From contig OY759724.1 in the NCBI GenBank assembly GCA_963662715.1, positions 332,670 through 396,669 on the forward strand: a stretch of DNA of 64,000 nucleotides, given 5' to 3'. Both the position numbers and the translations under genes were made by a program. Within the stretch, counting starts at the first letter, position 1, and every line of letters begins with the position of its first letter. This DNA is from Candidatus Omnitrophota bacterium (GTDB taxonomy: Bacteria > Omnitrophota > Gorgyraeia > Zapsychrales > JANLHA01). Positions 5,265-25,637 of this stretch are shown here, piece by piece. The notes under the pieces are model-generated. The model had not been told where the DNA came from. It searched no databases and saw nothing but the letters and a program-made list of their open reading frames with translations.

Positions 5265-5274
5265 AAACATAAAG

Positions 5275-5760: not shown

Positions 5761-6222
5761 TCAGGTCTTACGCTTGACCACCTTTAACGACTGCCGCAAG
5801 GCCCGGTCAATGTCCCGCTTTTTCATGGCTTCCCTTTTATCATAAAGCCTTTTTCCGGTCCCTAAAGCCAGTTCCACCTTGACCAGGCCGCGGTTATTCA
5901 TATAAATTTTCGTCGGCACCAGGACCTTGCCCCGCTCTATCACCATAGAAGAAATTTTCTTTATCTCCCGCTTGTGCATCAACAGCCTTCTGGCGCGGTC
6001 AGGCTCTTCGTTCATATAGCTTGCTTCTTTATAAGGGTTGATATGCAGGCTGTAAAGGATCACTTCCCCGTTTTCGATCTTCGCAAAACTGTCTTTGAAG
6101 TTCACAAAACCCGCACGGACAGACTTCACTTCGCCCCCCTTCAACTCAATCCCGCATTCCCATGTCTGGGACAGGAAATAGTTATGATAAGCTTTTTTAT
6201 TTGTCGCCACAGGTTTTGCCAT
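5761..6222 (-). CDS. smpB: SsrA-binding protein SmpB
   Basis: 153 aa with strong similarity to SmpB (MAKPV...KKAYHNY...GIELKGGEVKS...LLMHKREI). Adjacent to ssrA. Confidence 0.9.
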   Translation of the reverse strand: MAKPVATNKKAYHNYFLSQTWECGIELKGGEVKSVRAGFVNFKDSFAKIENGEVILYSLHINPYKEASYMNEEPDRARRLLMHKREIKKISSMVIERGKVLVPTKIYMNNRGLVKVELALGTGKRLYDKREAMKKRDIDRALRQSLKVVKRKT

Positions 6223-7756: not shown

Positions 7757-9190
7757 ATGGACCATACTCAAACTCAACTTCTGATCATCGGGGCCGGCCC
7801 CGGCGGATATGTCGCTGCCTTTCACGCCGCTGATTCCGGCCTGAATGTTACTTTAATTGACCGCGAAAAAAATCCCGGAGGCGTTTGCCTCTTCCGCGGC
7901 TGCATCCCTTCCAAAGCTTTACTGCATGTGGCGCGCATCCTTTCCGACGCCAGGGACGCCAAAGCGTTTGGGGTAGAATTCCGCGAACCGGATATTCATC
8001 CGGAAATTGTCCGCAAATGGAAGAACAGCGTCGTTGATAAATTGACCGGGGGGCTGGGGCAGCTGTCCCGGCAGAGAAACATCAACTTTATCCAGGGAGA
8101 AGCTGCTTTTCTTGATTCTCAAAATGTCGAAGTCAAAACAGCTGACGGCACGTTGTCTCAAATCCATTTCGACCATGCTATCATCGCGACCGGGTCTCAG
8201 CCTGTCACCCTTCCCTTTGCCCCTGAGTCGCCGCGGGTCATGGACTCCACGGCGGCTTTGGAATTAGCTGAAATCCCGCCGAGACTTCTTGTTATCGGCG
8301 GAGGATATATCGGACTGGAACTGGGGTCGGTTTATGCCGAACTGGGCAGCACGGTATCTGTCGTAGAAATGACGCCGCAGCTCCTTCCGGGAGTCGATCC
8401 GGACTTAAGCATGATCCTGAAAAAAAGGCTCCGGCTGAAATTCGAGGCCATCAAATGTCATACCCGGGTCACAGGACTGCAGGACACGGGGTCGGCCGTC
8501 GAGGTGACTTTCGAAGACGCCAAGGGGCAGACAAATTCCGATTCATACGACAAAGTCCTTATCGCCATCGGCCGCAAACCGGACGCCTCCTCCCTGCGGC
8601 TGGAAAAAACAAAAGTCCGATTAACAGACCGCGGGTTTATTCAAATCAATGCCCAGCGCCGGACAGACGACCCCGCTATTTACGCGATCGGGGATGTCGC
8701 CGGGAACCCTATGCTGGCGCATAAAGCGTCTCACGAAGCCCGGGTGGCGGTGGACGCGATCCTCGGGAAGAACACCGCTTTCTCCCCGCAGGCCATCCCG
8801 GCCGTGGTCTTTACCGATCCGGAAATTGCCTGGTGCGGCCTAACGCAAGCCCAGGTGCAGGATCAAGGCCCGGACATCAAAATTCTAAAATTCCCCTGGG
8901 CGGCTTCCGGACGGGCTGTCACGTTAAACCGCACTGACGGGTTGACAAAGATTATGACAGACGCCCGGACAGGCCGCATCCTTGGTGTGGCTCTCGTTGG
9001 GACCGGGGTCGGAGAAATGATCGCGGAAGGGGTTCTGGCTGTCGAGATGGGAGCGGTTGCCGAAGATCTTATGCTGAGCATCCATCCCCATCCGACGCTA
9101 TCGGAAACGATGATGGAAGCCGCCGAAAGTTTTTTCGGGCAGAGCATGCATATTTACAAGCCGCCCCGGAAAAAGCAGGACCTCATTTAA
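7757..9190 (+). CDS. lpdA: Dihydrolipoyl dehydrogenase (E3 component)
   Basis: 477 aa. FAD-binding GAGPGGY, the redox disulfide region CLFRGCIPSK, the NAD-binding GGGYIG and a C-terminal dimerisation domain. Confidence 0.9.
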   Translation: MDHTQTQLLIIGAGPGGYVAAFHAADSGLNVTLIDREKNPGGVCLFRGCIPSKALLHVARILSDARDAKAFGVEFREPDIHPEIVRKWKNSVVDKLTGGLGQLSRQRNINFIQGEAAFLDSQNVEVKTADGTLSQIHFDHAIIATGSQPVTLPFAPESPRVMDSTAALELAEIPPRLLVIGGGYIGLELGSVYAELGSTVSVVEMTPQLLPGVDPDLSMILKKRLRLKFEAIKCHTRVTGLQDTGSAVEVTFEDAKGQTNSDSYDKVLIAIGRKPDASSLRLEKTKVRLTDRGFIQINAQRRTDDPAIYAIGDVAGNPMLAHKASHEARVAVDAILGKNTAFSPQAIPAVVFTDPEIAWCGLTQAQVQDQGPDIKILKFPWAASGRAVTLNRTDGLTKIMTDARTGRILGVALVGTGVGEMIAEGVLAVEMGAVAEDLMLSIHPHPTLSETMMEAAESFFGQSMHIYKPPRKKQDLI

Positions 9191-10188
9191 TTTTCTTCTA
9201 TCCGGGTTAATAATTGCTTCAATTCCGGGCCGAAAATTTTTGAAAACTCGATAGAACCCAGCTGGTTCAGATGCTGGGAATTATAGAAATACTTTTCCTG
9301 CCGCGCCATTTCTGCCGAAGAGTAATCCATAAAAACAATGTCCCGGCCGTCACTCAGTTTTCTATAGATGGCTCTCACTTCATCCAAATTGACAACAAAC
9401 TCGTTGAACTGATAATAAACCGGGGCATAAACAAAAAACAGCCGGATACGTTTCTGCCGGCACAGCTGAACAAGCTCATTCAGAGCGGCCTTCCCCTCCT
9501 CGGTCATTTGCCCTTTAAGGCCTTGCGGATAAAGCCTTTTAACGGTTTTGACATCTTCCTCCTTATTCCAGTCTATGTTCACCGGGCAATAACCTTTGTA
9601 ACAGTCAACCGTATCTTCCCGGCCGGTCAACCCCTGGACCGCATCGACCGTAAAGTCATGACTTAACAGGGCAAAGCTGTATAAAGGGAAATACCTGGCT
9701 AAGATAAAATGTTTCGAAATCCCGGAAAGGGTTTGATAAATCTCTTTTTCGTTCAAATAAGGGATAAACTGTCCCGGATTATACGCCCGGGGCTTACGAA
9801 GGGTATTGCGTCCCACCACCTGAACAATAGCTTCCGGCGGGCGGTTGTATTTCAGGTAGACTTTTAACCGGGCCACCTGCAGGGCCAGGGAATTTCCCAG
9901 CAGGGCGATATTATAGACATCTTTATTCAGGTCCTCTTCCAGCAGAGAAACGTCCATGCCGGCTTGCGCCCGGGAAGCTCCAGTTATCAGGATGTCGGCA
10001 TTAATTTCTCCCCGGACAATACGGTTCCATTCCCCGAAATCGCCGCTTCTCCTCGCGTAAAACCCTTCCATCAAATAAGCCTGGACAGCCAGACTGAGGA
10101 TGACAAATATAACGGGAAAAGCGATCATGTCTCTTGCATTCTGATTCATGGCGTTAAAATTGGAAATAAATAAATTCGATCCCTTCAA
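9187..10188 (-). CDS. DltD/AlgJ-like membrane-anchored protein, the probable partner of the adjacent MBOAT acyltransferase
   Basis: 333 aa with an N-terminal TM helix and an extracytoplasmic domain. It overlaps the MBOAT gene's 3' end by 35 nt, which suggests translational coupling. An alternative start at M14 (10149) lies 4 nt after the MBOAT stop. The family assignment rests on context and weak resemblance. Confidence 0.4.
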   Translation of the reverse strand: MKGSNLFISNFNAMNQNARDMIAFPVIFVILSLAVQAYLMEGFYARRSGDFGEWNRIVRGEINADILITGASRAQAGMDVSLLEEDLNKDVYNIALLGNSLALQVARLKVYLKYNRPPEAIVQVVGRNTLRKPRAYNPGQFIPYLNEKEIYQTLSGISKHFILARYFPLYSFALLSHDFTVDAVQGLTGREDTVDCYKGYCPVNIDWNKEEDVKTVKRLYPQGLKGQMTEEGKAALNELVQLCRQKRIRLFFVYAPVYYQFNEFVVNLDEVRAIYRKLSDGRDIVFMDYSSAEMARQEKYFYNSQHLNQLGSIEFSKIFGPELKQLLTRIEEN

Positions 10189-11587
10189 ATTTCCCCAGAA
10201 AAATAATGCTGAAAAGTACCGCGTAATAAAAAATCCAGCGTGCGAACTTAGGCATCCTTAACGTCAGGTCTCTCAGCCGCCAGCGGCTCTGCAGCAAATG
10301 CACGATAATGAGCAGAGCTATCAAGGCCAAAGATACGGTAAAATCAAAAGTTTTATACGGGAAAGCGTCGTTGCCCCCCGGGCTGAACATATTTATTATA
10401 AGAGTTTTCACATCACGCAGCGACTGGGCTCTAAAAAATATCCATGAAAAAAGCACCAGGTGGTACGTGATGGCGATCCGAAGCATTTTGTACAGGGCCG
10501 GGACTCTCTCCAAATTCAGGAAAGACACCGCCCGGCGGCGCCAGCCTTCCGTCCAGACAGAAAAAAGCATATAAAATCCGTGAAGCGCCCCCCAGACAAC
10601 AAACGTCCAGTTCGCGCCGTGCCAAAGACCGCTGATAACAAAAACGAAAATAAGATTAAGGTACCACCGCTGTACCGGGACGCGGTTGCCGCCGAGAGGA
10701 ATGTACAAATAGTCCCGGAACCAGGTCGACAAAGAAATATGCCAGCGCCTCCAGAACTCGGCAATGGATACGGCAAAATAAGGGCGCCGGAAATTCTCCA
10801 TGATTTCAAAGCCCATGATCCTGGCGGCTCCGATAGCAATATCCGAATAGCCGGAGAAATCGCAATAAATTTGAAAAGCAAAAAACGTCGTGGCGATGTA
10901 AACCGTCGCGCCATGCCATTGCGCGGGATGCCCGTAAACAAAATTCACAAAAAAGGCCAAGCGGTCCGCGATGACGATCTTTTTAAAGAATCCCCATAAC
11001 ATAAGTTTCAGGCCGTCGCACATCCTGGGATAGTCGAAATCATGTTTTTTAAAAAACTGCGGCAACAAGTGGCCGGCCCGCTCAATCGGGCCTGCGACCA
11101 GCTGCGGGAAGAAAGATACGTATAAGGCAAAAACCCCTAAATGCCTTTGAGGCTCCAGTCTTTTACGGTAGACATCAATCGTATAGCTTAGCGTCTGAAA
11201 CGTATAAAAGGATATCCCTAAAGGAAGCAGGACATTCAGATGAGGGAGATACGCGGACAAACCGAGGGTCTTGAACAAGGCGTTAAAACTGGACGAGAAG
11301 AAATTAAAATATTTAAAAACCGCCAGAATGCCCAAATTCGTCATAAGGCTCAGGACAAGAAACATCCGGCGTTTCACAGGGTTTTCCGTCCGCCCCATCT
11401 GCCATCCGGCAGTGTAATCCACCAAGGTTGAAACCACCAGTAAAAGAACATACGGGATGTTCCAGAACATATAAAACACGTAACTCGCCAGAAGAAGCCA
11501 GGCCCAGCGGAAACGGAAAGGGAAAAGGAAATAAAGGGTAACAACGACAGGAAAAAATATTAAAAATTCTAGAGAATTAAAAAGCAT
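10154..11587 (-). CDS. MBOAT-family membrane-bound O-acyltransferase (AlgI/DltB/PatA-like)
   Basis: 477 aa, polytopic. Conserved MBOAT histidine region WRRWHISLSTWFRDYLYIPLGGNR and the C-terminal ...GLWHGANW motif. Confidence 0.8.
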   Translation of the reverse strand: MLFNSLEFLIFFPVVVTLYFLFPFRFRWAWLLLASYVFYMFWNIPYVLLLVVSTLVDYTAGWQMGRTENPVKRRMFLVLSLMTNLGILAVFKYFNFFSSSFNALFKTLGLSAYLPHLNVLLPLGISFYTFQTLSYTIDVYRKRLEPQRHLGVFALYVSFFPQLVAGPIERAGHLLPQFFKKHDFDYPRMCDGLKLMLWGFFKKIVIADRLAFFVNFVYGHPAQWHGATVYIATTFFAFQIYCDFSGYSDIAIGAARIMGFEIMENFRRPYFAVSIAEFWRRWHISLSTWFRDYLYIPLGGNRVPVQRWYLNLIFVFVISGLWHGANWTFVVWGALHGFYMLFSVWTEGWRRRAVSFLNLERVPALYKMLRIAITYHLVLFSWIFFRAQSLRDVKTLIINMFSPGGNDAFPYKTFDFTVSLALIALLIIVHLLQSRWRLRDLTLRMPKFARWIFYYAVLFSIIFLGKFEGIEFIYFQF

Positions 11588-11687: not shown

Positions 11688-11732
11688 AAAAAAACGGGAC
11701 AGCATCCTTTTATTATAAAAATGCTGTCCCGT
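11688..11732 (-). terminator. Rho-independent terminator of the giant gene
   Basis: Perfect 12-bp inverted repeat ACGGGACAGCAT...ATGCTGTCCCGT. On the minus strand it is followed by TTTTTTT, and it lies 24 nt after the stop at 11756. Confidence 0.6.
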
Positions 11733-11755: not shown

Positions 11756-14700
11756 TTAATTATAATTCAGCATGCTGAGCTTATCATGTTCGTCATCGAA
11801 AAAGAACTGAATATCCGACTCCGCCGGTTCCTGCTGAGGCTTCCGGTCTGCGCCTTTTTCCGCCTCTGTGCCCCGGCCCCGGGTTGTCCCTCGGGCCGGA
11901 ACCGCATCCTCGGCACTCATGCCCAGCAGCATCGGCAGGTTGGGAATCGGCGTAATGTTGATAATAACCGGCAAGAACCCTTCTATATTCATATTCTGAA
12001 TCGGCTGTTGCTGAACAGGTAAAGGAACACCGCTTCCGTCCCGTCTGATCTGCAGGTTCAAAAGCGCCGGATTAAGATCGATACCACCAAGCGGCGAAGA
12101 AGTCGCCGGCGCGGCTCCTATATTCGCTGCCAGCCGTTGAACGGTATTGATAACCTGGCCCACGCCGCCCTTACTGTTCTTTTCTGTTCTCATAAGTTTG
12201 CTGAGGTCACGTTTCGCCTGTTTGGTCGAGATGCTGCCATCAGCGACAGAGACCAGAAGCTCCCTTGTCCCTTTATTTTTCAGATTAAATTTCGTCATAG
12301 CCTTGTCAACGGCTTCGATCGGAGAAGAAACGGCCGCGCTGGCGAGTTCAATGACTTCCGCTGTTGCCAACAGGTTTTGCACGGCAGATTCTTCATTTAC
12401 CCTGTCAAGGACTTCCGTAATGTCCCGGTCGACCCAATCTCCAGGTAATGTCACAGCAACATCAATCCCGGCCTCCTGCCATTGAAAAGCGACACCGGTT
12501 TCATCGGCCCTTACCCCGTCATAACGCAAAACCAAGTTTGCGCCTTCGACAAAAAAGTAGGTCCTCTTCCAAGGGAGGTCCTCCCCTTCATCAAATTCCG
12601 GCAAATTGGTTTTTACGGTCAGCTGTTCAGACAGCTTAAAGGGCACGGACAAATCGGTCAAACGTGTCTCCAGCTGACTCATGGTGTTGATCACAGATTC
12701 TAAGCGCGTCGCCTCTTCGATCGGGATGTCCCGGGCTAATTCAATCTGCAGCTCTTTGGCCGGGAGAATCTCTCCGACCTGCCGTAGAACATCCGCGACC
12801 TGATTCCGGACTGTCTCTAGCCTGGCGCGGTCCTTTTCCACCTCTATTTCAACCTGGGCCAAAAGCTGTTCGGCCTGGGTTAACAAGTCAGCCACCTTTT
12901 CTTTTTCATTCGCGGCAAACTGAATAGGAGAAGAGGCCCCCAACGACATGAAGTCAATTAACGGGAACCGTTCCGGACGCCCGGCATCAAGCATGAGCAG
13001 CTGCAAATCCCGGTTCTCATCCTCCGTCACCCGGACAGCCTCATTAAACACCCGGGCGGCCATAACTAATATTCTCTCAGCCAGAGCCCTGTCAACACCG
13101 TCAATTTCCATTAATTTATTTTCAGCTTCTGTTCTCCGGTCAGCCTTCTCTAATTCTATCGCCTCCTGGATGGCCTGGTAAGCATCGGCCGTCACAAGGT
13201 TATAGCCTAAGGCCAAACTGGCCGGAAGCAGCCTGAACATGGCCTCTCCGACAGGGTAAGCTCCGTCCATCAGCTTGATGCTGAGGATATGGGCGGCTTT
13301 GGCCAAAGGAGGATTCTGTTCAATAAAGACGATCTGATTGGCCAATAAAGCCCGCATAGCGGCATGAATCCAGCCGTTCTGGGCCCCGTTGACCTGCTTA
13401 TCAATATCCACGATTTGATTAATAAGCTGTACGTTCTCTTCGGCTAACCCAATCGTTGAGAGTATCGGGGAAGACACGCCTAAATTCGTATAATCCAAGA
13501 ACTCGATATACTTCGCCTCAACCCCGGTAAGAGCTACGGCAAAAGGCCCGTCTGTAGGAGTCCAGGTTAACAAGACATCCTGAAGAGCAAAAGGATTAGC
13601 ATACTCAAAATCCCCTTGTATTTCCCGGGATACCAGCACAGTTGCATCATCCGGAGCCCTTAATTCCAGACGTGTTGTACTATCAGGCTCATGGACATTA
13701 ACATACAAAACATTTCCGTCATGCTTGAATAAGATCCTTCTTGAAGCGCCCTGATTATTGTCAAGGTTCCGTCCCTCGCTGACCAGAGGCTCTCCCAGCA
13801 CGGCAAAATTCCCCAGCTGGCTTGCTGCTTCATAATTCTCAACTTCGTTATATTTCGTTCTTGCCCGCATCACGGCCGCCTGCCATTCCCCTGCCGAAGC
13901 AGCCGTCTCCAAGGCCTCGGCCAGGACAAACGGACTCTCTGACATCCAGTCGCCGGAAAGGGTTAATTCTTTTATATCCGTCTTGTCGTCCCTGGCGCGT
14001 AAAACAAGCCGGGTCGTCCCTTGTGTATGGTCCCGGTGAGCATAAAGGATACGTCCGTCATGCCCGAACAGGGCTCTCAAAGACGGGCCGTCATTTTCTG
14101 CCCAATTCTGTCCTTCCCGGACCATTGTTTTAACCGGAGAAGCAGCCAACAACGACTCTCCGATATAGGGGTCATGCTGAGCATGCAGGTCTCTGCCTGC
14201 CTCCATATTAGGGATTCCATTCTCGTCTGTCCTCAGCAAGGCAGCTCCCAGACCGGTTCCAGGCCCGATATAAAGAATGCGGGCATTGTCGATTCTTTGC
14301 CCGGACAACTCATATAATGCTGTGGCCCCGGCAAAAGCATCGTTCATCCACACCACGTTATAAGGTTCTCCTAATAAACCCTGCAACGTGCTGGCAGGGT
14401 TCACACCGAAAAATTGCGGGCGGTTGGGCCAGCTTTCTTGAGCGATAGCGCCATCAGCCTCTTTTTTCCCCGGATGCCCGACCCCGATTTCAAAGGAAAC
14501 CTCGTATTGTTCAGTCTCTAATTCATTCCGTAAAGTATTAATAAGAGGAAGCAGTGCGCTGTAATATTCTTCCGGTTGAACTTGTGCGATATCACGGTCT
14601 AATACAAACCGCTGCATCCCTCCTACAAATTGCACAAAATTTCCGTTTTCATCAAACTGGATCCCCTGCATCTTGGCAGAGGTCCCGCCCACATCAACAC

Positions 14701-17700
14701 CGATCACAACCTTGTTCCGTCTAAGGTCTTGATCAACCAGCAATGCTGCTCCTAATATCCCTGCTTCTTCCGCAACCATTTGATTTTCAGCTGAAAGGAT
14801 CGGCAGTATCGTAACGCCGGTTCCCAACACGCTTCGGATCTTCTGTTCCAGGATATTGCGGATAAAAGGATTATTGCTAATAGCCCCGCCGATCTCAATA
14901 ACGTTAATGCCTTTCCACTCATCTTCGATGGCTCTTAAAGCTTCTCCATCCTGACTCCGCAAGGCCCCTTCCATCAGCAGAGACGCAAACTGCGCATAAA
15001 CACCCCCGACAAATTCCAGCACCTGAGTGATAACATCTGCGGCCTCGGAATCGGGATAAGTTTGCAAGACCCAGCCCATAAACCTGGTATCCAGATTCCC
15101 CTGATATTCGGCCAACAGGTCCGTAAACAGGTCCTTGTTTTCCTTAAGGAGCTGTTCATTCACCTGGGCGAACATCCGGTTAATCGCCGTAGTCGAAGAA
15201 AGGTTCTCCGTTGTTAATCTTTCTGTTGTAAAAGACACCAGCACTTCACGCCCGTCCCGCAGGGAAATGGCTACAGGGATGGCTTCTAACGGCGAAGAAC
15301 CCAAGTTATTTTTTAAAGCGACAATATCTTTCACGGAATAGGGCTTCATGAAAATATCCGTAAAAAGGCCGCCTTTTAAACCTGTCGCGGCATCAACCTG
15401 CTGAAGCTCCTCCAGATTCGGGGCAAAACCCGTCGTGAGGATGATGGGGAGATCTCTTACCGCCCGGATCTCTCTGGCAAGTTGTTCGCCGGTCATCTGA
15501 GGCATGACGAAATCTGTCACCACCAGATCAATATCCGGATTCTCGTTAAACACTCTCAAGCCTTCTTCTCCGTTATCGGCGCGAATGACTTCCGCTTCGC
15601 CGAAAACCGCACCGAAGAGCTGCGCAGCCACATCTCCGACCATCTCTTCATCGTCCACAACAAGAATTTTCTTGATGGGCGTCGAAACCACGGCAGCAGT
15701 GGTGGTGGTAATTTTATCTTTTAAAGCGGTTAACTGCTCAAACTCATAAGGTTTATCCAGGACTTCATCAAATAATCCGCCCTTTAAACCGGTCGCTTCA
15801 TCCACGGCCGTTAATGTGTCGTCTATCGTCCCTGACAACAAGACAACCGGGACATTGTTTCCTGCGGCCCTCAACTCACGGGTGAACTGATCTCCGGTCA
15901 TAACAGGCATTTGCAAATCCGTTACAACCAGGTCAAAATCCCCGGACTCCCGGAAGGTCTGAAGGGCTTCCTGCCCGTTGTCTGCGGTAACGACTTCCAC
16001 GTCCCCGAACACGTCTTTCAAATCTTCGCTCACCAGGAGCAAAATGGATTTTGAATCATCGACCAGGAGGATCTTCTGAATCGGAGAAGCCACCGGGGCC
16101 GCTCTCAAGGAAGACTCTACCTGCGAGATAAACGCCTGCAAGTCTTCTGAATATTTGTTCGCCTGAATGATTCCCGACAATATTTCACTGACTTCTGTCT
16201 CTGTCGCCTGCGCGGCGGCAACATAAGCCCCTTCTATCTCAAAGAATACTTCGGCCACGATTTCCCCTGTCCTCCCATCATATAATTTATGAGAAATCTG
16301 GTTGGCCCCAGCAACCTCTTCCCCGATAACCATTACAGGGTTATTATCCCGCATAACCAATATGGTACGGGCAAAGGATTGCGGATGATAAGTCCGGATG
16401 ATACCCGTCTGCCCCTGGGCCATGGTCAACAATTCCAGCCCCGTTGTATCGATGACCGGGGATGAAGCAGGCGGCGTTGTCCTTACGAGCTCTAAGGCTC
16501 TAGCCGCATCCTCTTCCGTAATTCCAATCAAATCATTACGGAAAGAAACCCCGGCGCTTCTTTCTGCATCTTCCAAGCTCCCTGCCGTAAAATTGAACTT
16601 CCGCAGATCCTCCAGCCGAAAAGTAAAATACTGCGATATTTGGGCCGCTGTCGGAACCCGCCCTTGACTTGCTTCTATATCCATCCATTGCCGAAACAAC
16701 TCAATATCATCCCTATCCACCTCATATTCGCCCGTTACCATTCTCTCTATGGCAGCCGGCAACCCCGTCATCCATCCCCGATATCTCGGATGACTCAAGA
16801 TATACTTCTCTACCCCTACGGGCAGAAACGTTATGTCTTTTTCCGGGTCGGAGGAAAAATGCTCCCGGATATTCGTGGAGGATGTCCCGAACAAATTAAT
16901 ATGTCCTATCGGCCTTATAAATCCTCTTGCCATGTATTCCTTCATTTGAGCCACTTCCACCGGCATAGGCAGACTTTCAAATAATTCCCTGAAGTTGAAG
17001 GCCAACATCATGTCGATATTATTTCTTTGAAGATGGTCGGCCAACTCCTCTTTCATCCGGTCCATCTTTAAGACCGTATCCGGCTGAGGATGATCCCCGT
17101 CCATTTTAGGAGTCCTGTACCCATCGGTATCCATGTCGCTTGACGGGGCATAAACATGCATATGGTCCCCGCCGACCGCTGTATAGACCCACGTTGTCTT
17201 TCCTGTTCTGCCCCCGTTGATTTCAATCAGTTTCTTGTACTTCGTTTCGCCATCCGCCTCTGAACCGTTCAAAACTTTTGACAAGACAAGAAGTCCGTCA
17301 AAAAGATCCACCCATTCCTGCGCCATTTCATCGCGCTCCTCAAAAGTCGGGTTCAGCCCCTTCTTCTGCTTGCGGTAATCAAAGGCATGGTTGACGACAC
17401 CAACCTGGGAAATTTTCAATTGCGCCATGGCCCGCAAAACCGGTTCGAACTGGCCGAAATGCAGAGGATTCAACGCTGAGGCATAAACACCGACGATCGT
17501 ATCCCCGGTATCTGTTTCCTGCCCCGTAAACTCCGCGTCCTGTTCACTCCAGCGCACCTGCTGCAATTGCATCTCCCCGTTCATCATATGGACGCCGATT
17601 TCCCATAAAGATTCCTTCACCTTTCGTGTCCATTCACCGGCCAATTGCTCGTTTCGACCCGGTTCCTGACGCAGACTCCGCCTCACAAGATTATCAAAGA

Positions 17701-20476
17701 CCTGTTCCACGTCCACCCGGATCTCTTTGTTCACGTTCGGAAAAATGCTTTTGGCATATTCATATTCCTTAACCCGGTTCTCTTCATGCGTCCCTTGATT
17801 CGCGGTGTAGACCAAAGAACGCTCAAGCATCCGGTAAGGGTTCCCTTTTTCCTCTATCATGCGCCTGAACCCGCTTTCCATAACGATCTTCTTCCGTCCC
17901 GCCTCGACAACAAGGGCCATACCAAACGTGACATCTGTCCCGCTGTCGATTTCCTCTACCGTGGTAATATCGATCTGGCGTCTTTCTTTATTTAAAAAGT
18001 ACGTACGGATTTCACTCAGTTCTGCCAACTGAACTTCCCGGCGTTCCTGCCCGGCCTGTTCATAAGCCCATACCTGATTCAGAACTTCTCCCATACCCAT
18101 CCGCTGATTGTAGCTGTTGCCGAACATCACTCCGTCCCGGTACGGGATCCCGTCCGGGTTGATTCCGTCCTCTAATTCAACTAAAATATCTCTCCAATCC
18201 CGTTTCGTTTCATCACCGGCCCTGGCTTTCATCATCATAATCGGCGTAATACCATACCCGAAAAACTCATGGCTCGTTGTGCCTTCAGCTTCAGAATAAA
18301 CGCTCACCAACTGAAACAGGTCATCAAAATTTATTGTTCTGGTCCTTCCTGTCTCCGTCTCCACAACATTATCCTCTTTGGCGTGGATAAAATTCGCCAA
18401 TGAATCTTCCCGGATACTCCGCGGCGCCCCCAGCGGTGAGGAGACGGCCGTCTGATCAAGCAGCATGAGCTCGTCTTCGTCAAGCTGCTGCAGCAGGGCC
18501 GTTTCCGCATCTGACAGGGCCTGGGAAACCTCCGGCCCCTTTTGAAGAAGCTGTGTGGCGGCCTCTATTAAAACGCCCAACTGTTCCGGCACCTTGGCGA
18601 AAGTGTCGTCCGGCAACGCGTCGCTTCTTATCAAATGCAGCAAACTTAAAATCTTCCGCTCTCTTCGCAGTTCACTCCTGGCCACAGCCCGGTTTTCATC
18701 AGCCAGAGCTGACCGGTCTCCGTAATTTTGGGCCGCTTTCTCCAACCCGGCGATATCCTCTTGGTATAACTGCATAATTTCATCGGGAATGGTAACCGCA
18801 CCCCCACGCGCCCTCACAATAGTTTCCAAAGCTTCAAACACGTTCATCGGCGCTACGCCTGTCATCAACTCTTCCAAACGCCCTTCTTCCTGCGGCGCTA
18901 AGGTTGATTTAAGAATATCGGACATAATAAGGGCGAGACGCTTTGTTCTGGTTCTGGTAAAGGTCTTGGAAGCATATTCCAGCAAACGCCGGCTCTCCTC
19001 GGTCAGGTTCTGGAAAGATTCTATTTTCACCAGGTCATTAAGAGATACTCCCGCCTGAATCTTTTCGGCAATATCCGCACTCACGCGGCCGATCAGGGCC
19101 AACCCGTCGTCAACGGTGATCCGCTGGGCCGCGGCTGATGTGACATACCCCAGATACTGGCGGGCTAACTGCGTGTTCTGTTCGATCACATCGGCAAAAT
19201 TCGATATAGGGGAAGCCACAATAGCGCTCTGCGCCGACAATGTTTCAGAAGGGTTCTCCGCCAGGATAGCCGCCACCTGCACCACCGGGCTTGAAACACT
19301 CATCCCGGCATCGATCCTTGCTCTTAAAGGAGACGACGGCGGGACATTACGCAGTTCGACGGACGTGATCGAGCTGGAGACCTCGGAAGCATCAACCCCG
19401 CCGGAAAAATATTTTCGCGGGATGACTTTTTTCGTCGACATATCATAATCTTCCCGGATATAGTCATAAACGCCTTTTTTAAATGCCGCCAGGTACTGTT
19501 CATAAATTTTCTGTTTAATTTCCTTGTCGTTAACGTCCACGCCTTTCACCTTGCCTTTGTTGACATAGACTTGTCCAAGGAGACTCGCTCTTAAATTCTC
19601 TTTATACCAGGTCGCTAAAATCAGGGAATTGAAAATCTGCCGCAGATTAGCAAAATTCTTGCCCTCATTGACTTCCTTTTCTATTTCCGGCAACAAAACT
19701 TCCCGGACAACATCCGAAGAAACCTTGCTAAGAGTCTTTACATAATCCTGGGTGATCTTTGTGGTTCCTAATTTTTTATTATCCAGGTTCCTTTCCAAAG
19801 CTAAGTAATCCTCTTCCAGCATAACTTTCAGATGACTGTCAACCACAAAAGCGCTGCCGTTATGCTCAACAACCAAGGCGTCTTCCGGGATAATCCATAT
19901 TTTGTTGAACGTATTGATCGGAATATTTGTCGTACCATATTCTTTTTGTGCGCGGTCATAGACTCTTTGCCAAAATTCCTGGCCGAGATCATCTTCCGGA
20001 TAGATCATCGAGGCCGTTAACTGCTTCAGCATATAGTCCTGAGCCAGGAGGTCGCGGCCCATTTCTGTCATGCTGAAACCTTCGGGAACAATACGGTCGC
20101 TTTCATAAGGAGAAAGGTTAACCCACAAATCTTTTTCCGGGATCGTCAGGGCGGCGAGAAAATATTTAATGAGTTTGCTGGATTCTGCTTCGAGTTCTTC
20201 TCCGGTCAATTGGTCGTTTCCGGAATCGATAATAAAATCGAATTTTAAAGGATTTTCCGGGTCGATCTTCACCCCCTTCAAACAGGCCGGGGCATAAATA
20301 TCGCTTTTCATAACCATGGCCCCGGGCATCGGCAGATCCAAAACCGTCGGGGCTGGATCAGCCGCGGATACCGGCGCGGGTGGAATGATGAGGCTTATCA
20401 GAAATGAATAACTGATAAACGAGACTAAAATACGATACGACCAATGATCACGACTATTCCGGAAATAGTTAAACAT
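11756..20476 (-). CDS. Giant (2906 aa) multidomain protein. It has an N-terminal signal peptide or anchor, a TagD-like cytidylyltransferase module, an ASKHA/ROK-like kinase module, two receiver domains, an internal duplication and recurrent SSP junction motifs.
   Basis: Uninterrupted 8.7-kb ORF with a strong RBS (AGGAGGG, 11 nt upstream of the ATG at 20476). N-terminus: MFNYFRNSRDHW-[ILVSFISYSFLISLII]-PPAPVSA|ADP. aa ~993-1050 GVYASALNPLHFGQF...VGVVNHAFDYRKQKKG aligns with TagD TYGTFDLLHWGH...VVAISTDEFNLQKQKK. aa ~1860-2100 carries IGGAISN...AGILGAALL, then VVIGVDVGGTSAK and ILYIGPGTGLGAALL (ROK/ASKHA motifs). aa 1466-1588 and 1601-1723 are two REC domains with the DD, D, T and K residues all present. 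Confidence 0.85.
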   Translation of the reverse strand: MFNYFRNSRDHWSYRILVSFISYSFLISLIIPPAPVSAADPAPTVLDLPMPGAMVMKSDIYAPACLKGVKIDPENPLKFDFIIDSGNDQLTGEELEAESSKLIKYFLAALTIPEKDLWVNLSPYESDRIVPEGFSMTEMGRDLLAQDYMLKQLTASMIYPEDDLGQEFWQRVYDRAQKEYGTTNIPINTFNKIWIIPEDALVVEHNGSAFVVDSHLKVMLEEDYLALERNLDNKKLGTTKITQDYVKTLSKVSSDVVREVLLPEIEKEVNEGKNFANLRQIFNSLILATWYKENLRASLLGQVYVNKGKVKGVDVNDKEIKQKIYEQYLAAFKKGVYDYIREDYDMSTKKVIPRKYFSGGVDASEVSSSITSVELRNVPPSSPLRARIDAGMSVSSPVVQVAAILAENPSETLSAQSAIVASPISNFADVIEQNTQLARQYLGYVTSAAAQRITVDDGLALIGRVSADIAEKIQAGVSLNDLVKIESFQNLTEESRRLLEYASKTFTRTRTKRLALIMSDILKSTLAPQEEGRLEELMTGVAPMNVFEALETIVRARGGAVTIPDEIMQLYQEDIAGLEKAAQNYGDRSALADENRAVARSELRRERKILSLLHLIRSDALPDDTFAKVPEQLGVLIEAATQLLQKGPEVSQALSDAETALLQQLDEDELMLLDQTAVSSPLGAPRSIREDSLANFIHAKEDNVVETETGRTRTINFDDLFQLVSVYSEAEGTTSHEFFGYGITPIMMMKARAGDETKRDWRDILVELEDGINPDGIPYRDGVMFGNSYNQRMGMGEVLNQVWAYEQAGQERREVQLAELSEIRTYFLNKERRQIDITTVEEIDSGTDVTFGMALVVEAGRKKIVMESGFRRMIEEKGNPYRMLERSLVYTANQGTHEENRVKEYEYAKSIFPNVNKEIRVDVEQVFDNLVRRSLRQEPGRNEQLAGEWTRKVKESLWEIGVHMMNGEMQLQQVRWSEQDAEFTGQETDTGDTIVGVYASALNPLHFGQFEPVLRAMAQLKISQVGVVNHAFDYRKQKKGLNPTFEERDEMAQEWVDLFDGLLVLSKVLNGSEADGETKYKKLIEINGGRTGKTTWVYTAVGGDHMHVYAPSSDMDTDGYRTPKMDGDHPQPDTVLKMDRMKEELADHLQRNNIDMMLAFNFRELFESLPMPVEVAQMKEYMARGFIRPIGHINLFGTSSTNIREHFSSDPEKDITFLPVGVEKYILSHPRYRGWMTGLPAAIERMVTGEYEVDRDDIELFRQWMDIEASQGRVPTAAQISQYFTFRLEDLRKFNFTAGSLEDAERSAGVSFRNDLIGITEEDAARALELVRTTPPASSPVIDTTGLELLTMAQGQTGIIRTYHPQSFARTILVMRDNNPVMVIGEEVAGANQISHKLYDGRTGEIVAEVFFEIEGAYVAAAQATETEVSEILSGIIQANKYSEDLQAFISQVESSLRAAPVASPIQKILLVDDSKSILLLVSEDLKDVFGDVEVVTADNGQEALQTFRESGDFDLVVTDLQMPVMTGDQFTRELRAAGNNVPVVLLSGTIDDTLTAVDEATGLKGGLFDEVLDKPYEFEQLTALKDKITTTTAAVVSTPIKKILVVDDEEMVGDVAAQLFGAVFGEAEVIRADNGEEGLRVFNENPDIDLVVTDFVMPQMTGEQLAREIRAVRDLPIILTTGFAPNLEELQQVDAATGLKGGLFTDIFMKPYSVKDIVALKNNLGSSPLEAIPVAISLRDGREVLVSFTTERLTTENLSSTTAINRMFAQVNEQLLKENKDLFTDLLAEYQGNLDTRFMGWVLQTYPDSEAADVITQVLEFVGGVYAQFASLLMEGALRSQDGEALRAIEDEWKGINVIEIGGAISNNPFIRNILEQKIRSVLGTGVTILPILSAENQMVAEEAGILGAALLVDQDLRRNKVVIGVDVGGTSAKMQGIQFDENGNFVQFVGGMQRFVLDRDIAQVQPEEYYSALLPLINTLRNELETEQYEVSFEIGVGHPGKKEADGAIAQESWPNRPQFFGVNPASTLQGLLGEPYNVVWMNDAFAGATALYELSGQRIDNARILYIGPGTGLGAALLRTDENGIPNMEAGRDLHAQHDPYIGESLLAASPVKTMVREGQNWAENDGPSLRALFGHDGRILYAHRDHTQGTTRLVLRARDDKTDIKELTLSGDWMSESPFVLAEALETAASAGEWQAAVMRARTKYNEVENYEAASQLGNFAVLGEPLVSEGRNLDNNQGASRRILFKHDGNVLYVNVHEPDSTTRLELRAPDDATVLVSREIQGDFEYANPFALQDVLLTWTPTDGPFAVALTGVEAKYIEFLDYTNLGVSSPILSTIGLAEENVQLINQIVDIDKQVNGAQNGWIHAAMRALLANQIVFIEQNPPLAKAAHILSIKLMDGAYPVGEAMFRLLPASLALGYNLVTADAYQAIQEAIELEKADRRTEAENKLMEIDGVDRALAERILVMAARVFNEAVRVTEDENRDLQLLMLDAGRPERFPLIDFMSLGASSPIQFAANEKEKVADLLTQAEQLLAQVEIEVEKDRARLETVRNQVADVLRQVGEILPAKELQIELARDIPIEEATRLESVINTMSQLETRLTDLSVPFKLSEQLTVKTNLPEFDEGEDLPWKRTYFFVEGANLVLRYDGVRADETGVAFQWQEAGIDVAVTLPGDWVDRDITEVLDRVNEESAVQNLLATAEVIELASAAVSSPIEAVDKAMTKFNLKNKGTRELLVSVADGSISTKQAKRDLSKLMRTEKNSKGGVGQVINTVQRLAANIGAAPATSSPLGGIDLNPALLNLQIRRDGSGVPLPVQQQPIQNMNIEGFLPVIINITPIPNLPMLLGMSAEDAVPARGTTRGRGTEAEKGADRKPQQEPAESDIQFFFDDEHDKLSMLNYN

Positions 20477-20701
20477 AATACAGTTCCCTCCTGGATTTTG
20501 GTAAAAAAATAGACTTTCTTATGAATTTACATAGAATTCTTGGGACAGGGAGATTTTTTGAAAGGGTATATAAAATATATCATGTATAAAGGGGAAACAC
20601 AAGAAAAGTTTATTATATAACATATTTATTTCCTTATATTTAAGAACTTGCCCAGGCCGTTTCCAAAAATTAGGGCACATAAAGGATAAAATAAGTCATA
20701 T

Positions 20702-21175
20702 TTACTGTGATTCCGGAGAAATATCCGTAATGTGAAATTCCGCTGTAAGCCCTTCCTCTAACTGATTTTGAGACGACTGTCCGGCATTAACCTCCAAAAC
20801 ATACAGGGCTTTTTGCGCAGGCGGGTAAACAGGACAGGGCGACGACTGGCACGGGGGGACGTTTTCTTCAATATGAACAATCCTCCGGTTATGATCCAGC
20901 CAGATGATATCTAGAGGAATATACGTATCTTTCATCCAGAAAGCATAGGCTCTTCGTTCCGGAAAAATAAAAAGCATCCCTTTCCCCGGCTCCAGGCTGG
21001 TGCGGAATTGCAGGCCTTGCGTCCTTTGTTCCTGAGTTAAAGCTAACTCGACTTCATAACACGTATCTGAGAAGCATACACTGTTGTTTTTGCTGACTTT
21101 TTTCTGACAGGAAGCAATAAAAAACAGCAGAAAAAAGGCCAGGCAGAAAAATCTGATATTTTTAGGCATCATCAC
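20702..21175 (-). CDS. DUF192-domain lipoprotein
   Basis: 157 aa. Lipoprotein-type signal FFIASC. The core ...QGLQFRTSLEPGKGMLFIF...AFWMKDTYIPLDIIWLD matches the DUF192 (COG1430) signature. Confidence 0.7.
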   Translation of the reverse strand: MMMPKNIRFFCLAFFLLFFIASCQKKVSKNNSVCFSDTCYEVELALTQEQRTQGLQFRTSLEPGKGMLFIFPERRAYAFWMKDTYIPLDIIWLDHNRRIVHIEENVPPCQSSPCPVYPPAQKALYVLEVNAGQSSQNQLEEGLTAEFHITDISPESQ

Positions 21176-21957
21176 AATTCATTTCCCGTGAGGTTCAAAT
21201 AATCCTTGAAGCGGAGCGCCCCGGTGATTTCCTTATGAACAATCCCCACGCGCTCGGAAAGATACGGATGCGTACGGAAATAATTGATCTGCTGGGCAGG
21301 TGCCCGGTCCTGTTCTTTTTTGAGGATATCCAGCATCGTTATCATTTCCTCGGCATCATAGCCTGCCTTCTTCATATATTTCACGGCCAGCCGGTCGGCT
21401 TCAAATTCATCACGCCGGGAATAGGCGAAAAAAACACTCGTATAGACGGCATTAACGCCCACAATGGCATCCGCATCCTGCGAGGCGATGGCCAAAGCCT
21501 GCAGAATGGTATACCCGTAAGCGCTCTGCATCCGTTTGATGCCGTGGCGGGCCGTAATATGGCCTAACTCATGCGCAATAACCCCGGCCAATTGATCATC
21601 ATTCTCCACCTTATCCATAAGGCCTTTAAAAACATAAATATACCCTCCGGGCAGACTCACGGCATTGATTTTATCCTCATCAATCACGCGGATCGTGTAA
21701 ACCACGTCTTTCCGGTCGACAACCGGAATTAAGCTCTCAAGAATTTTCTGAACCCGCGCATTGACATCGATGTCCTCGTTAATTTTATAGTTGCGTTCAA
21801 TTTGCCGGGCCACAGAATCCCCGATACGCACTTCTTTCTCCGTCCCGTAAATCAGCCGTTCCTCGCGCCCGGTCGCTAGATTATATTCCGAGGAACAGCC
21901 CCACAGGTTCAACAGGGACATCAGCATGACCAGCAAACAACCATGTCGCCTACTCAT
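21172..21957 (-). CDS. M48-family zinc metalloprotease (HtpX/BepA-like), lipoprotein. Start moved to M26 of the track ORF.
   Basis: HELGHITARH (HExxH) motif and an E-x-x-A-D-like downstream region. The ATG at 21957..21955 overlaps the maf stop as ATGA and yields an N-terminus MSRRHGCLLVMLMSLLNLWGCSS with a lipobox. The track ORF's 25-codon upstream extension (to 22032) runs inside maf. Confidence 0.75.
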   Translation of the reverse strand: MSRRHGCLLVMLMSLLNLWGCSSEYNLATGREERLIYGTEKEVRIGDSVARQIERNYKINEDIDVNARVQKILESLIPVVDRKDVVYTIRVIDEDKINAVSLPGGYIYVFKGLMDKVENDDQLAGVIAHELGHITARHGIKRMQSAYGYTILQALAIASQDADAIVGVNAVYTSVFFAYSRRDEFEADRLAVKYMKKAGYDAEEMITMLDILKKEQDRAPAQQINYFRTHPYLSERVGIVHKEITGALRFKDYLNLTGNEL

Positions 21958-22559
21958 AATACCGTTACTCCGCATTTCTTGAGCATGCCCCGTAACATGG
22001 CCAAAGGCAACCCGATGACGTTTGTGTAGCATCCTTCAACACGGTTAATAAACAGCGCGCCCCGGCCCTCAATATTATACCCGCCGGCTTTATCCAGAGG
22101 AAATATCTTACGATGATACCGCCGGATTTCCTGATCTGACAACGGCTGCATATAGACTTTGGTTTTTTCATAGCCGACAAATTCCCGGTTCCCGGCAACA
22201 TCAATGACAGCCACACCCGTGTAGACCCAGTGCGGATGCCGGCACAAGAATCTCAGGACACTTTCAGCTTCTTTAAGATTTCCGGGTTTGCCGATAAGAC
22301 CTTTATGCCGTTGGTAAACAACCGTATCCGCCGCAATGATACAGCCTTTCCGAAACCGGGCGGCCACATCTCTCGCTTTTAAACAGGCGTTGTGTTTAAC
22401 AAGCCTGCTGCAGGAATTTCTCACCTGATGGTCCTCCTGCACGGCGCTGGGACACACGGTAAACTTCAGCCCCAGTTGACGGAGAAGGGCTTTACGGCGT
22501 TGAGACGCCGAAGCTAGAATAATGGATGGCATTGTCGGCATGATGAAAAGATAGCCCAA
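21954..22559 (-). CDS. maf: Maf-like nucleoside-triphosphate pyrophosphatase (septum formation protein Maf)
   Basis: 201 aa. IILASASQRRKALLRQLGL...IIAADTVV... is typical of Maf. Confidence 0.85.
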   Translation of the reverse strand: MGYLFIMPTMPSIILASASQRRKALLRQLGLKFTVCPSAVQEDHQVRNSCSRLVKHNACLKARDVAARFRKGCIIAADTVVYQRHKGLIGKPGNLKEAESVLRFLCRHPHWVYTGVAVIDVAGNREFVGYEKTKVYMQPLSDQEIRRYHRKIFPLDKAGGYNIEGRGALFINRVEGCYTNVIGLPLAMLRGMLKKCGVTVL

Positions 22560-24524: not shown

Positions 24525-25616
24525 ATGAGAATATTAAGAAATTATGTCCTTAACGAATGCGTTGTCCCTTTTTTCCTGGCCCTGGGTGTGCTCACCTGCG
24601 TTTTTCTGCTGGGTAATCTCATTCAACTCACTCATCTGGTGATCAACAAAGGGGTAAGTCTTTTAACGGTCAGCCGCGTGTTCCTGCTGTATATCCCTGT
24701 TTTGTTAGGGTACACTCTTCCTATCGCCTGTCTGGTGGCTGTCATTCTGGGCTTCAGCCGCTTGTCCTCCGACAATGAAATTCTGGCGATGAGGGCCAGC
24801 GGGATAATTCTCAGACGGTTATTCATCCCGCTTTTCGTTGTCGGGGTGGTCCTTTCCCTCGTTATGTTTATTCTGAATGACCGCCTCATCCCTTATGCCC
24901 ACCATGAACAGCGGAAATTATTAAAAGACCTCGGGGCCAAAAATCCCACCGCCCTGCTCGAGCCGGGGGTGTTTATCCACGCTTTTGAAGGCCAGATTCT
25001 TTTCATTCATAAAATTGAAGACAACCGCCTTCACAATATAACCATTTATCAGCCGCAGCCGGACGGCAAACCGACCCGTACGATCATCGCCAGCCGGGGA
25101 GAATTCTCCCGCGTTCCGGGGAAAAAGCAGATTATCCTCAAGCTGGTCAACGGGACGTCAGACGAACCTGACATGAAAAATCCCAACAACTTCTATAAGC
25201 TTAATTTCAACACGCTTTTTGTTACTTTGGACATGGACCAGTCCGACCAGAAACTTGACAAAAAGGCCAAAAGCATGTCTTTGAAGGAACTGAAAGAGGA
25301 AGCGTACCGTTTGGAGAAATTGCTCGTTGACACATCACGCCTGAAAACAGAGTATTACGCTAAAATCACCTGGTCATTCGCTCCGCTCGTGTTCGTGACC
25401 CTGGGCTTTCCCCTGGCCGTTATAACGAATAAACGGGAAAAGTCCGCCAATGTTATTATTGCAATCCTGGCCGCCGCTGTTTATTACCTCATGACCTTAG
25501 GATGCGAGGCCTTAAGCATCGAGAATATTGTACCGCCCGGAATTATTATGTGGGTGCCGAACATTATCGGAGGAGCCGTTACGCTTGTCTTAAATTACCG
25601 GTTAGGAAAACTTTAA
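24525..25616 (+). CDS. lptF: LptF/LptG-family LPS export permease (YjgP/YjgQ)
   Basis: 363 aa with 6 TM helices and a central periplasmic beta-jellyroll domain. The N-terminus MRILRNYVLNE...FFLAL is typical. The paralog immediately downstream gives the usual lptFG pair. Confidence 0.7.
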   Translation: MRILRNYVLNECVVPFFLALGVLTCVFLLGNLIQLTHLVINKGVSLLTVSRVFLLYIPVLLGYTLPIACLVAVILGFSRLSSDNEILAMRASGIILRRLFIPLFVVGVVLSLVMFILNDRLIPYAHHEQRKLLKDLGAKNPTALLEPGVFIHAFEGQILFIHKIEDNRLHNITIYQPQPDGKPTRTIIASRGEFSRVPGKKQIILKLVNGTSDEPDMKNPNNFYKLNFNTLFVTLDMDQSDQKLDKKAKSMSLKELKEEAYRLEKLLVDTSRLKTEYYAKITWSFAPLVFVTLGFPLAVITNKREKSANVIIAILAAAVYYLMTLGCEALSIENIVPPGIIMWVPNIIGGAVTLVLNYRLGKL

Positions 25617-25637
25617 TATTCATTTTATTATTCCATT

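Follow-up and report, generated by a model that had tools for sequence, protein, structure and literature searches.

A 2906-residue Omnitrophota protein and its large family of predicted exported proteins with constant ends and variable enzyme cassettes

The stretch of DNA considered here, called the window, comprises 64,000 nucleotides from a Candidatus Omnitrophota bacterium (contig OY759724.1, positions 332,670 to 396,669), and on its minus strand (11756..20476) lies an uninterrupted open reading frame (ORF) for a protein of 2906 amino acids (aa). A reading of the sequence alone had singled this protein out as an oddity, in which modules of a kind usual in the cytoplasm stand behind an export signal. 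The paradox stands; the singularity does not. The protein very probably belongs to a family of exported proteins, purged of cysteine, whose members share a plan: a signal peptide, a conserved head, variable cassettes of cargo, and a conserved tail. Within Omnitrophota the protein is ordinary, yet the family that makes it ordinary is large, uncatalogued and undescribed, and the biology of that family is probably unusual.

Constant ends of a large family

A homologue search with the 2906-aa protein returned 1888 proteins, and those that carry a name are labelled Candidatus Omnitrophota (or Omnitrophica). Shared regions were mapped by local alignment across the 119 relatives listed among the 1888, the set to which counts out of 119 refer below. 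Query residues ~1-365 are common to all 119 and residues ~2797-2860 to about 115 of them; between head and tail there is almost nothing common, and the enzymes differ. When a profile of the head was run exhaustively against 1.84 billion representative sequences, it found 8341 proteins at E<=1e-3, of which 6663 reach E<=1e-30. The match begins at the N-terminus in all 150 of the matches listed, in proteins of 420 to 5312 aa, and the 2906-aa protein itself scores 617.5 bits over residues 1-364. Species-representative genomes hold at least 599 copies, and a single metagenome-assembled genome (MAG) may hold 4-7 or more. The best 78 family loci are labelled Omnitrophota, or else "uncultured Planctomycetales" or "bacterium" in third-party bins. 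As far as these sequences go, the family is seen almost only in Omnitrophota, a nanobacterial phylum.

Could the gene be an artefact of assembly, a fusion made by gene calling, or a decaying pseudogene? Nothing was found in favour of such a view, and I give it practically no credence. A run of 2906 random codons free of stops has a chance of about 3e-61. A protein identical to the 2906-aa product is encoded on a public contig of 3.36 Mb, syntenic orthologues occur in two other MAGs (loci L001 and L002) with the same M48 peptidase upstream and MBOAT gene downstream, and both of the ends that define the family are intact. The gene is real, and the artefact reading is refuted as far as sequence data reach. 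Its expression signals are as had been noted from the sequence alone. An AT-rich gap of ~225 nt precedes a Shine-Dalgarno AGGAGG (20487..20492, minus strand, like all features of the gene given below), read directly, 10 nt 5' of the ATG (20476-20474), and just past the stop codon is an intrinsic terminator (11694..11732), a 16-bp stem followed by TTTTTTT. With its own ribosome binding site and its own terminator, the gene is plausibly a monocistronic unit. Its product would be 323 kDa in mass with a pI of 4.67.

The signal peptide or anchor claimed for the N-terminus is there (aa 1-38; 20363..20476), with an n-region of K and R, a hydrophobic core at aa 16-34, a PP helix breaker, and the cleavage site VSA|AD. 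The core has a Kyte-Doolittle value of 1.99 and is the sole segment in the protein that resembles a transmembrane helix. Across the family the n-region, a core of ~17 residues, and the PP are conserved, and alanine at -1 and glutamine at +1 are nearly invariant (A|Q). These features and their conservation fit a predicted cleavable signal of the type recognized by Sec and signal peptidase I (SPase I). Inspection ruled out other kinds: there is no lipobox cysteine at the cleavage site as in lipoproteins, no RRxFLK adjoining the h-region as in Tat signals, and no G|FxxxE as in prepilins.

The head (aa 39-362; 19391..20362) is N-terminal in all 119 homologues. Its sequence identity within the family is 50-63%, and an alignment of 29 sequences shows 58 invariant columns; the head carries the motifs LNLPxPG, WVNLSPYE, TEMGRDLLAQDYxLKQ, NTFNKVWIxP, and FANLRQ, ending in IPRKYFSGG, all of them present in the query. 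Neither head nor tail matches any model in Pfam or NCBIfam, even at E<=10. The predicted structure of the head, of medium confidence (mean predicted local distance difference test score, pLDDT, of 65.7), is mixed alpha/beta and not a beta-helix. Searched with Foldseek, it found at best a PDB entry at E 0.037 with a TM-score of 0.11, and nothing in BFVD.

The tail (aa 2797-2852; 11921..12088) is found in ~115 of the 119 homologues and reads GGIDLNPALLNLQIRRDGSGVPLP..QQPI..MNIEGFLPVIINITPIPNLPMLLG in the 2906-aa protein, directly preceded by the tetrapeptide SSPL (aa 2793), an instance of the junction motif discussed below. The family consensus, GGIDLNPALLDLQIKRDGNGVPLP..QQPI..M.IEGF.PVIIN.TP..NLPxLLG, is ~56 aa in length, and its pattern GGI[DN]L...G[F]xPVIIN...LLG is present in the 2906-aa protein. 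A variable charged extension follows, of 10-90 residues in the family and occupying aa 2853-2906 here (11759..11920). AlphaFold2 applied to 45 tails gave a predicted TM-score of 0.21 and essentially coil, so the tail is not supported as an autonomous domain. Since it is coil when modelled alone, it looks more like an extended segment for recognition or for the binding of a partner. A full-text literature search for its GGIDL/GGIDF motif returned nothing.

Searches for tail homologues gave two matches with a single sequence and, with a profile, mostly fragments at the ends of contigs. In one locus (L079, 183-911), an ORF of at most 242 aa has the family tail (GGIDFDP...GFTPVIINIAPV...LGL) with neither head nor signal peptide, and 13 contigs have the same head-less arrangement at ~660 bp from their end. 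Small proteins without a head may bear the tail too, or a repeat may be where the assemblies break.

In agreement with the sequence-only reading, the 2906-aa protein has no match in Pfam (E<=1-10) to an adhesin architecture, to a TPS domain, to the MARTX-type cysteine protease domain, to the C-terminal domain of type IX secretion substrates, or to an autotransporter barrel. A motif scan of it found no LPXTG, no GGxGxD (RTX), and no PEP-CTERM, and at the DNA level no tandem repeat was found. The classical features of adhesins, toxins and nonribosomal peptide synthetases are absent, as had been said, and a toxin- or effector-like role may still apply.

Cassettes and the motif at their borders

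What lies between head and tail is divided by a motif that had been overlooked when the long linker regions were first described; those regions are there, acidic as claimed (the modules have pI 4.1-5.0), and bounded by [SA][ST]P[ILV]. Thirteen copies (12089..19336) stand where shuffling predicts 0.5. They begin at aa 381, 395, 421, 679, 1338, and 1463 (window positions 19325-19336, 19283-19294, 19205-19216, 18431-18442, 16454-16465, and 16079-16090) and at aa 1598, 1727, 2112, 2335, 2515, 2717, and 2793 (15674-15685, 15287-15298, 14132-14143, 13463-13474, 12923-12934, 12317-12328, and 12089-12100). They mark every module border: the linker after the head, the start of each receiver domain, both flanks of the kinase module, and the start of the tail. 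In members rich in the motif, 41% of the internal ends of homology blocks fall within 12 aa of it, against 9% expected, a 4.5-fold excess. The 13 copies differ in the codons used for Ser, Pro, Ile, Leu, and Val; the constraint is therefore on protein and not on DNA. A site of DNA-level recombination was considered and ruled out, by the differing codons and the lack of a tandem DNA repeat.

The motif is not the same throughout the family. SSP[VIL] is found in 30 of 120 proteins and DAAM in 18 of 120, others use ESPDAA, ADPAA, or SSDGA, and about 60% of members have no recurrent 4-mer. Paralogues on the same contig have the same junction type though their heads are only ~60% identical. That the junction type follows the genome suggests a genome-encoded reader acting in trans, such as a protease or an enzyme that modifies the chain; ongoing exchange of cassettes within the genome would also account for it.

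Exchange is seen even between syntenic orthologues. The proteins of L001 and L002 (of a type represented by relative P0004) are 2058 and 2049 aa in length and pass from the receivers to M8, M9 and the tail (M numbers denote the modules described below). They lack M6 and M7, and unrelated sequence stands in the place of M2 and M3. In relative P0002, the order is receiver-M8-M6-M9. Such alignments show the junction motifs as the places where cassettes come, go, and change their order.

Which cassettes does the 2906-aa protein carry? Pfam finds two significant matches in it, both to receiver domains, and these alone among its cassettes pass curated thresholds. Receiver 1 (aa 1463-1597; 15686..16090) has DD at 1473-1474, the acceptor D1520 in TDL, S1548, and K1575; receiver 2 (aa 1598-1726; 15299..15685) has DD at 1608-1609, D1655 in TDF, T1682, and K1711. 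The match to PF00072 (aa 1469-1584 and ~1603-1720) has an E of 4.9e-29 and 101 bits, against a cut-off of 30.2. The two receivers of the sequence-only reading are secure, with catalytic residues intact in both. No match to a response-regulator output domain appears in the 2906-aa protein, and the flanks have no gene for a histidine kinase.

The cytidylyltransferase with a HIGH motif proposed earlier fares less well: a nucleotidyltransferase at the level of the superfamily is retained, below threshold, and the module is closer to NadD, with HFGQ in place of HxGH. This is M2 (aa 679-1337; 16466..18442), an N-terminal part plus a NadD-like core at aa ~993-1245 with HFGQ at aa 1006 and SSTNIR at aa 1199. 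Against TIGR00482 it has an E of 0.0077 and 16.3 bits, far from the curated cut-off of 112. By phmmer there is no match in PDB; a profile of eight sequences gives 17 matches there, nine of them NadD chains (best E 0.012), and covers both N- and C-terminal motifs. The NadD-like cassette occurs at other positions in P0007-P0010, P0012, P0025, and P0038, and two of its homologues keep HxGH. These comparisons weakly suggest that M2 is a nucleotidyltransferase with a superfamily-level resemblance to NadD.

Similarly, the kinase-like domain of the ASKHA fold claimed earlier holds at the superfamily level, with its phosphate motifs present, though its matches fall below curated thresholds. M6 (aa 1727-2111; 14144..15298) resembles ASKHA/ROK sugar kinases, with DVGGT at 1928 and GTGLG at 2073. 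It matches NF045942 (polyphosphate glucokinase; E 3.7e-4, 20 bits against a cut-off of 250), PF02685 (E 0.005, 16.3 bits against 22.1), and PF01968 (Hydantoinase_A; E 0.009), and is sub-threshold also to allose kinase and glucokinase; phmmer finds PDB glucokinases at E~0.7. The assignment is weakly to moderately supported by these matches. A segment (IEIGGAIS...GILGAALL) that resembles the C-terminal subdomain of ASKHA proteins stands ahead of the N-terminal DVGGT, out of its usual place, and could be the mark of a circular permutation or the remnant of a tandem kinase. Permuting M6 did not raise its score and yielded just a faint match to the C-terminal Hexokinase_2 model, at E 0.25.

The remaining modules resemble no named enzyme. 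M1 (aa 381-678; 18443..19336) is a spacer rich in A, L, and E that begins with three junction motifs (381, 395, 421) and whose sub-modules have changed places in P0002. M3 (aa 1338-1462; 16091..16465) has no homologue among the 119 retrieved. M7 (aa 2112-2334; 13475..14143) is a duplicated unit of ~105 aa, LFxHDGxxLY...TTRLxLRAxDD...GD, with a local self-alignment score of 159 (BLOSUM62) and no family match in Pfam or NCBIfam. M8 (aa 2335-2514) and M9 (aa 2515-2716), together 12329..13474, are also rich in A, L, and E and are common to P0002-P0006 in other order.

Elsewhere in the family, the cargo is more readily named: mostly enzymes of sugar-phosphate metabolism, glycolysis, gluconeogenesis, and glycogen, along with signalling domains. 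The Pfam matches of the 119 relatives are dominated by phosphoglucomutase (PGM), UTP-glucose-1-P uridylyltransferase (UGPase), glucose-6-P isomerase (PGI), PGK, GAPDH, enolase, TIM, and aldolases. The dominant set also takes in PPDK, PEPCK, isocitrate lyase (ICL)/malate synthase, glycogen synthase, hexokinase, and CofD, together with signalling domains (receiver, GGDEF, PP2C, RelA/SpoT-HD) and HEAT repeats. The 4729 aa of P0086 hold enolase, PPDK, GAPDH, TIM, and PGK on one chain. Segments of pathways on one chain are seen in P0086, P0090, P0049, and P0100/P0112, for example PGM-UGPase-PGK-PGI and ICL-PEPCK-aldolase-malate synthase. M48 domains appear as cargo in P0018 and P0035.

Probable export and proposed site of action

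There is little cysteine in these proteins. The 2906-aa protein has one (C65), and the average over 120 relatives is 0.06%, against 1.33% in the other genes of the window and 1.20% in the non-family genes of 78 related loci. Divided by region in 166 complete members, the frequency is 1.6% in the first 40 residues, 0.026% in the body, and 0.39% in the C-terminal extension. A chain that quits the reducing cytoplasm is expected to be low in cysteine, and such a composition typifies substrates that pass through an envelope in an unfolded state. Sulphur economy is an unlikely cause of the loss, since methionine is not depleted in the family but stands at a normal 2.7%. In the extension after the tail, 10 of the 166 members have a pair of cysteines, CxDDxxGxxxC, which is probably a disulphide loop and as such would fit an extracytoplasmic location; the sub-lineage includes P0138, P0146, P0152, P0159, P0182, P0199, and P0226.

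The cysteines that remain are as telling as those that are gone. P0020 and P0086 both carry GAPDH cassettes, and their sole cysteine beyond the signal peptide is that of the active site, SCTTN, from which it follows that selection removed dispensable cysteines and kept the catalytic one. Stand-alone homologues of cassettes (two PGIs, an AMP-dependent ligase, and an enzyme of 1096 aa), from genomes that bear the family, have neither head nor signal peptide and contain 4-12 cysteines where the cassettes have none; they are 24-43% identical to the cassettes. Thus the cassettes are, on the evidence of these comparisons, old specialised paralogues and not housekeeping copies. Three points, then, argue that export is real and the enzymes active: the ~50-fold drop in cysteine, the retention of the catalytic cysteine, and the cysteine-containing stand-alone paralogues. 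The purge together with the exception made for catalysis argues for active enzymes that truly leave the cytoplasm.

I propose, leaning only slightly towards belief, that this acidic protein of the Omnitrophota head-cargo-tail family is exported with active, exchangeable cassettes. Sec would translocate the chain, and the signal peptide would be cut after VSA. Head and tail would be the constant parts by which machinery encoded elsewhere in the genome targets, anchors, or further secretes the chain, and the cargo enzymes would act outside the cytoplasm of the producer. The junction motifs would be sites for a genome-encoded factor acting in trans, most simply a processing protease, or else hinges. 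Nearly all of the cargo works on phosphorylated intermediates with nucleotides. The likeliest place for it to act would be the zone of contact with a host or prey cell, or the inside of that cell, since nowhere else are there phosphorylated substrates, nucleotides, and phosphodonors. One relative in culture lives as an epibiotic predator, and its RNA turns up within dead prey cells (PMC13153191); predation is believed to set free the cytosol of the prey (PMC12583861). That the 2906-aa protein acts at or in prey is a tentative idea, one I would sooner doubt than assert. It is rather unlikely, though worth stating, that the whole phylum practises a delivery in which cysteine-purged enzymes, exported by Sec and cut at their junctions, reroute the sugar-phosphate and nucleotide pools of prey or host. 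Such a metabolic effector polyprotein, if true, would have no known counterpart.

Several considerations weigh against the proposal of export with active cassettes. The kinase, the nucleotidyltransferase, and the receivers (and elsewhere PGK, PPDK, and hexokinase) need ATP or other NTPs and phosphodonors, which are not expected in periplasm or medium. The NadD-like module, with HFGQ for HxGH, may be inactive. In 78 loci, the surroundings of family genes show no conserved partner, whether secretion system, protease, or anything else; the only recurrent neighbour is a generic OmpR-type regulator (14 of the 78), and the genes around the ORF in the window are housekeeping throughout. With a pLDDT of 65.7, the failure to match the predicted head to a fold is weak evidence. 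Export is predicted from sequence logic and composition, and I only infer what head, tail, and junction motif do, that the motif is cleaved, and that there is delivery to prey.

The need for ATP would be met at once if the protein never left home. Were the N-terminal helix uncleaved, or never engaged by Sec, the protein could be a scaffold for metabolism or signalling, tethered to the membrane on its cytoplasmic side, where ATP and partner kinases are at hand for cargo of cytoplasmic type and for intact receivers. Nielsen & Lui read giants with only transmembrane segments in this way (10.64898/2026.06.07.730766). Against a tether speaks the conserved SPase I site (PP...A|Q). Positive charges N-terminal to the helix predict N-in, C-out, and there is no second hydrophobic segment to return the chain. 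The drop in cysteine comes after residue 40 and not before, and cytoplasmic stand-alone paralogues, which contain cysteine, exist. I consider the tethered scaffold improbable. Alternatively, the cassettes might sit on the surface as pseudoenzymes or moonlighting adhesins whose catalysis is irrelevant. Surface glycolytic enzymes do serve as adhesins in other bacteria, and both the altered HxGH of the NadD-like module and the distance of most cassettes from curated thresholds suit this idea. It does not explain why the catalytic cysteine of GAPDH should be the only one kept in P0020 and P0086, why the catalytic residues of the receivers and the ASKHA phosphate motifs are intact, or why some NadD-like homologues keep HxGH, and I judge it very unlikely.

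Compatible with the proposal of export with active cassettes is the more specific view that the protein is a polyprotein, in which a lineage-specific protease cuts the junction motifs after export, freeing head, enzymes, and tail. A motif at every border, after the head region and before the tail included, is what one would look for, as are constraint at the level of protein, a motif type that tracks the genome and not the paralogue, and homology blocks that end at motifs. West-Roberts et al. proposed post-translational cleavage of giant proteins (10.1101/2023.11.21.568195). Yet no protease is linked to family genes, about 60% of members are without a recurrent 4-mer, a site containing proline is unusual for most endopeptidases, and the motifs could equally be hinges, sites of modification, or leftovers of cassette exchange. 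I regard processing of this kind as possible, though unlikely. A different route of export, by the logic of type I secretion as in LapA and RTX adhesins, would make the tail a secretion signal and the head a plug that retains the protein in an outer-membrane channel. The protein's size, acidity (pI 4.67), and freedom from cysteine are right for it, as are a conserved N-terminal domain and a conserved C-terminal segment without a fold of its own. But the protein has a canonical, conserved Sec signal with an SPase I site and no RTX repeats, 10-90 variable residues follow the tail, and no genes for ABC, MFP, or TolC components lie nearby. Such a route is highly improbable.

Other known systems resemble the family in logic only; the domains that define them were tested for and not found. 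MARTX toxins also have constant ends and exchangeable central cassettes, which are freed by cleavage between domains, whereas the 2906-aa protein lacks MARTX repeats, a cysteine protease domain, and the signal logic of the type I secretion system; its cargo is enzymes of central metabolism, not toxins, and neither in sequence nor in fold was a relationship detected. TpsA proteins (FHA, CdiA) share with it a Sec signal, a conserved N-terminal domain of ~300 aa, great length, poverty in cysteine, and variable distal parts, but it has no Haemagg_act/TPS match in Pfam, its head is predicted not to be a beta-helix, and it has no TpsB-like neighbour. The RTX adhesins secreted by type I systems (LapA, MpIBP) are giant, acidic, and cysteine-free, with an N-terminal retention module, an unstructured C-terminal signal, and a short protease site; the 2906-aa protein differs in its Sec signal, in its lack of RTX or Ig-like repeats, and in a tail that stops short of the extreme C-terminus. 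Its cassettes keep the hallmark motifs of NadD (H-x-G-Q and SSTxIR) and ROK kinases (DxGGT and GTGxG), and the receivers are bona fide, like those of response regulators, but they sit in a 323-kDa chain predicted to be exported, with no DNA-binding output, and the NadD- and ROK-like ones are far below cut-offs.

Nearest in kind are the giant proteins of Omnitrophota themselves, known as multi-enzyme metabolic cluster proteins and Archaeovorins. West-Roberts et al. 2023 (10.1101/2023.11.21.568195) describe proteins of at least 30 kaa with PGM, receiver, ROK kinase, and glycolytic content, and Nielsen & Lui 2026 (10.64898/2026.06.07.730766) describe proteins of at least 10 kaa with the same sort of content; in both preprints, glycolytic domains are predicted to be extracellular, and whether this is real or an error of topology prediction is left undecided. 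These giants share with the 2906-aa protein the phylum, a frequent N-terminal signal peptide, and a tiling of sugar-metabolism, receiver, and ROK domains. Theirs, however, are at least 10,000 or 30,000 aa in length, with many transmembrane helices and SecA-DEAD, C39, S8 peptidase, or dockerin domains, while the protein described here has 2906 aa, one hydrophobic segment, and no Pfam match to SecA-DEAD, C39, S8, or dockerin. No mention of the head, the tail, the junction motifs, or the cysteine purge was found in the available parts of the two preprints. Long exported multi-enzyme proteins of Omnitrophota are as a general kind already noted there; the head-cargo-tail family is, within those parts, not described.

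The family offers a good handle on the problem, with thousands of members of 0.7-5 kaa, a size that can be expressed, and with a defined head, tail, and junction motifs open to mutation, tagging, and searches of existing proteomes. If the proposal of export with active cassettes is true, then ultra-small predatory or epibiotic bacteria have a new way to use housekeeping enzymes outside their own cytoplasm, and two large orphan domains would be added to the catalogues of protein families.

Other genes of the window

The gene directly upstream of that for the 2906-aa protein (21172-22032) encodes an M48 metallopeptidase whose signal, LWGC, is like that of a lipoprotein; it is syntenic in L001 and L002. 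On the other side, an MBOAT O-acyltransferase (10154-11587) overlaps an ORF of 333 aa (9187-10188) that has a hydrophobic N-terminal segment and no Pfam match; the pair, also syntenic in L001 and L002, resembles an acyltransferase of the AlgI/DltB type with its partner.

The first 5700 nucleotides of the window include a tmRNA (5272-5664, minus strand), with SmpB adjoining at 5761-6222. On the 3' side of the tmRNA is a stretch of low GC content (0.37-0.41 as opposed to ~0.49 elsewhere) that holds a 679-aa protein with SIR2_2 and TPR domains (1852-3891) and an unannotated ORF of 315 aa (675-1622). The stretch has the look of an island that entered at ssrA, and it may be related to defence.

Further along, LptF/LptG (24525-26753) indicate that the host genome is apparently diderm. 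An operon at 41305-45290 encodes a McsA-like protein (UVR), McsB (ATP:guanido phosphotransferase), and ClpC, components of a protein-arginine-kinase quality control best known from Firmicutes.

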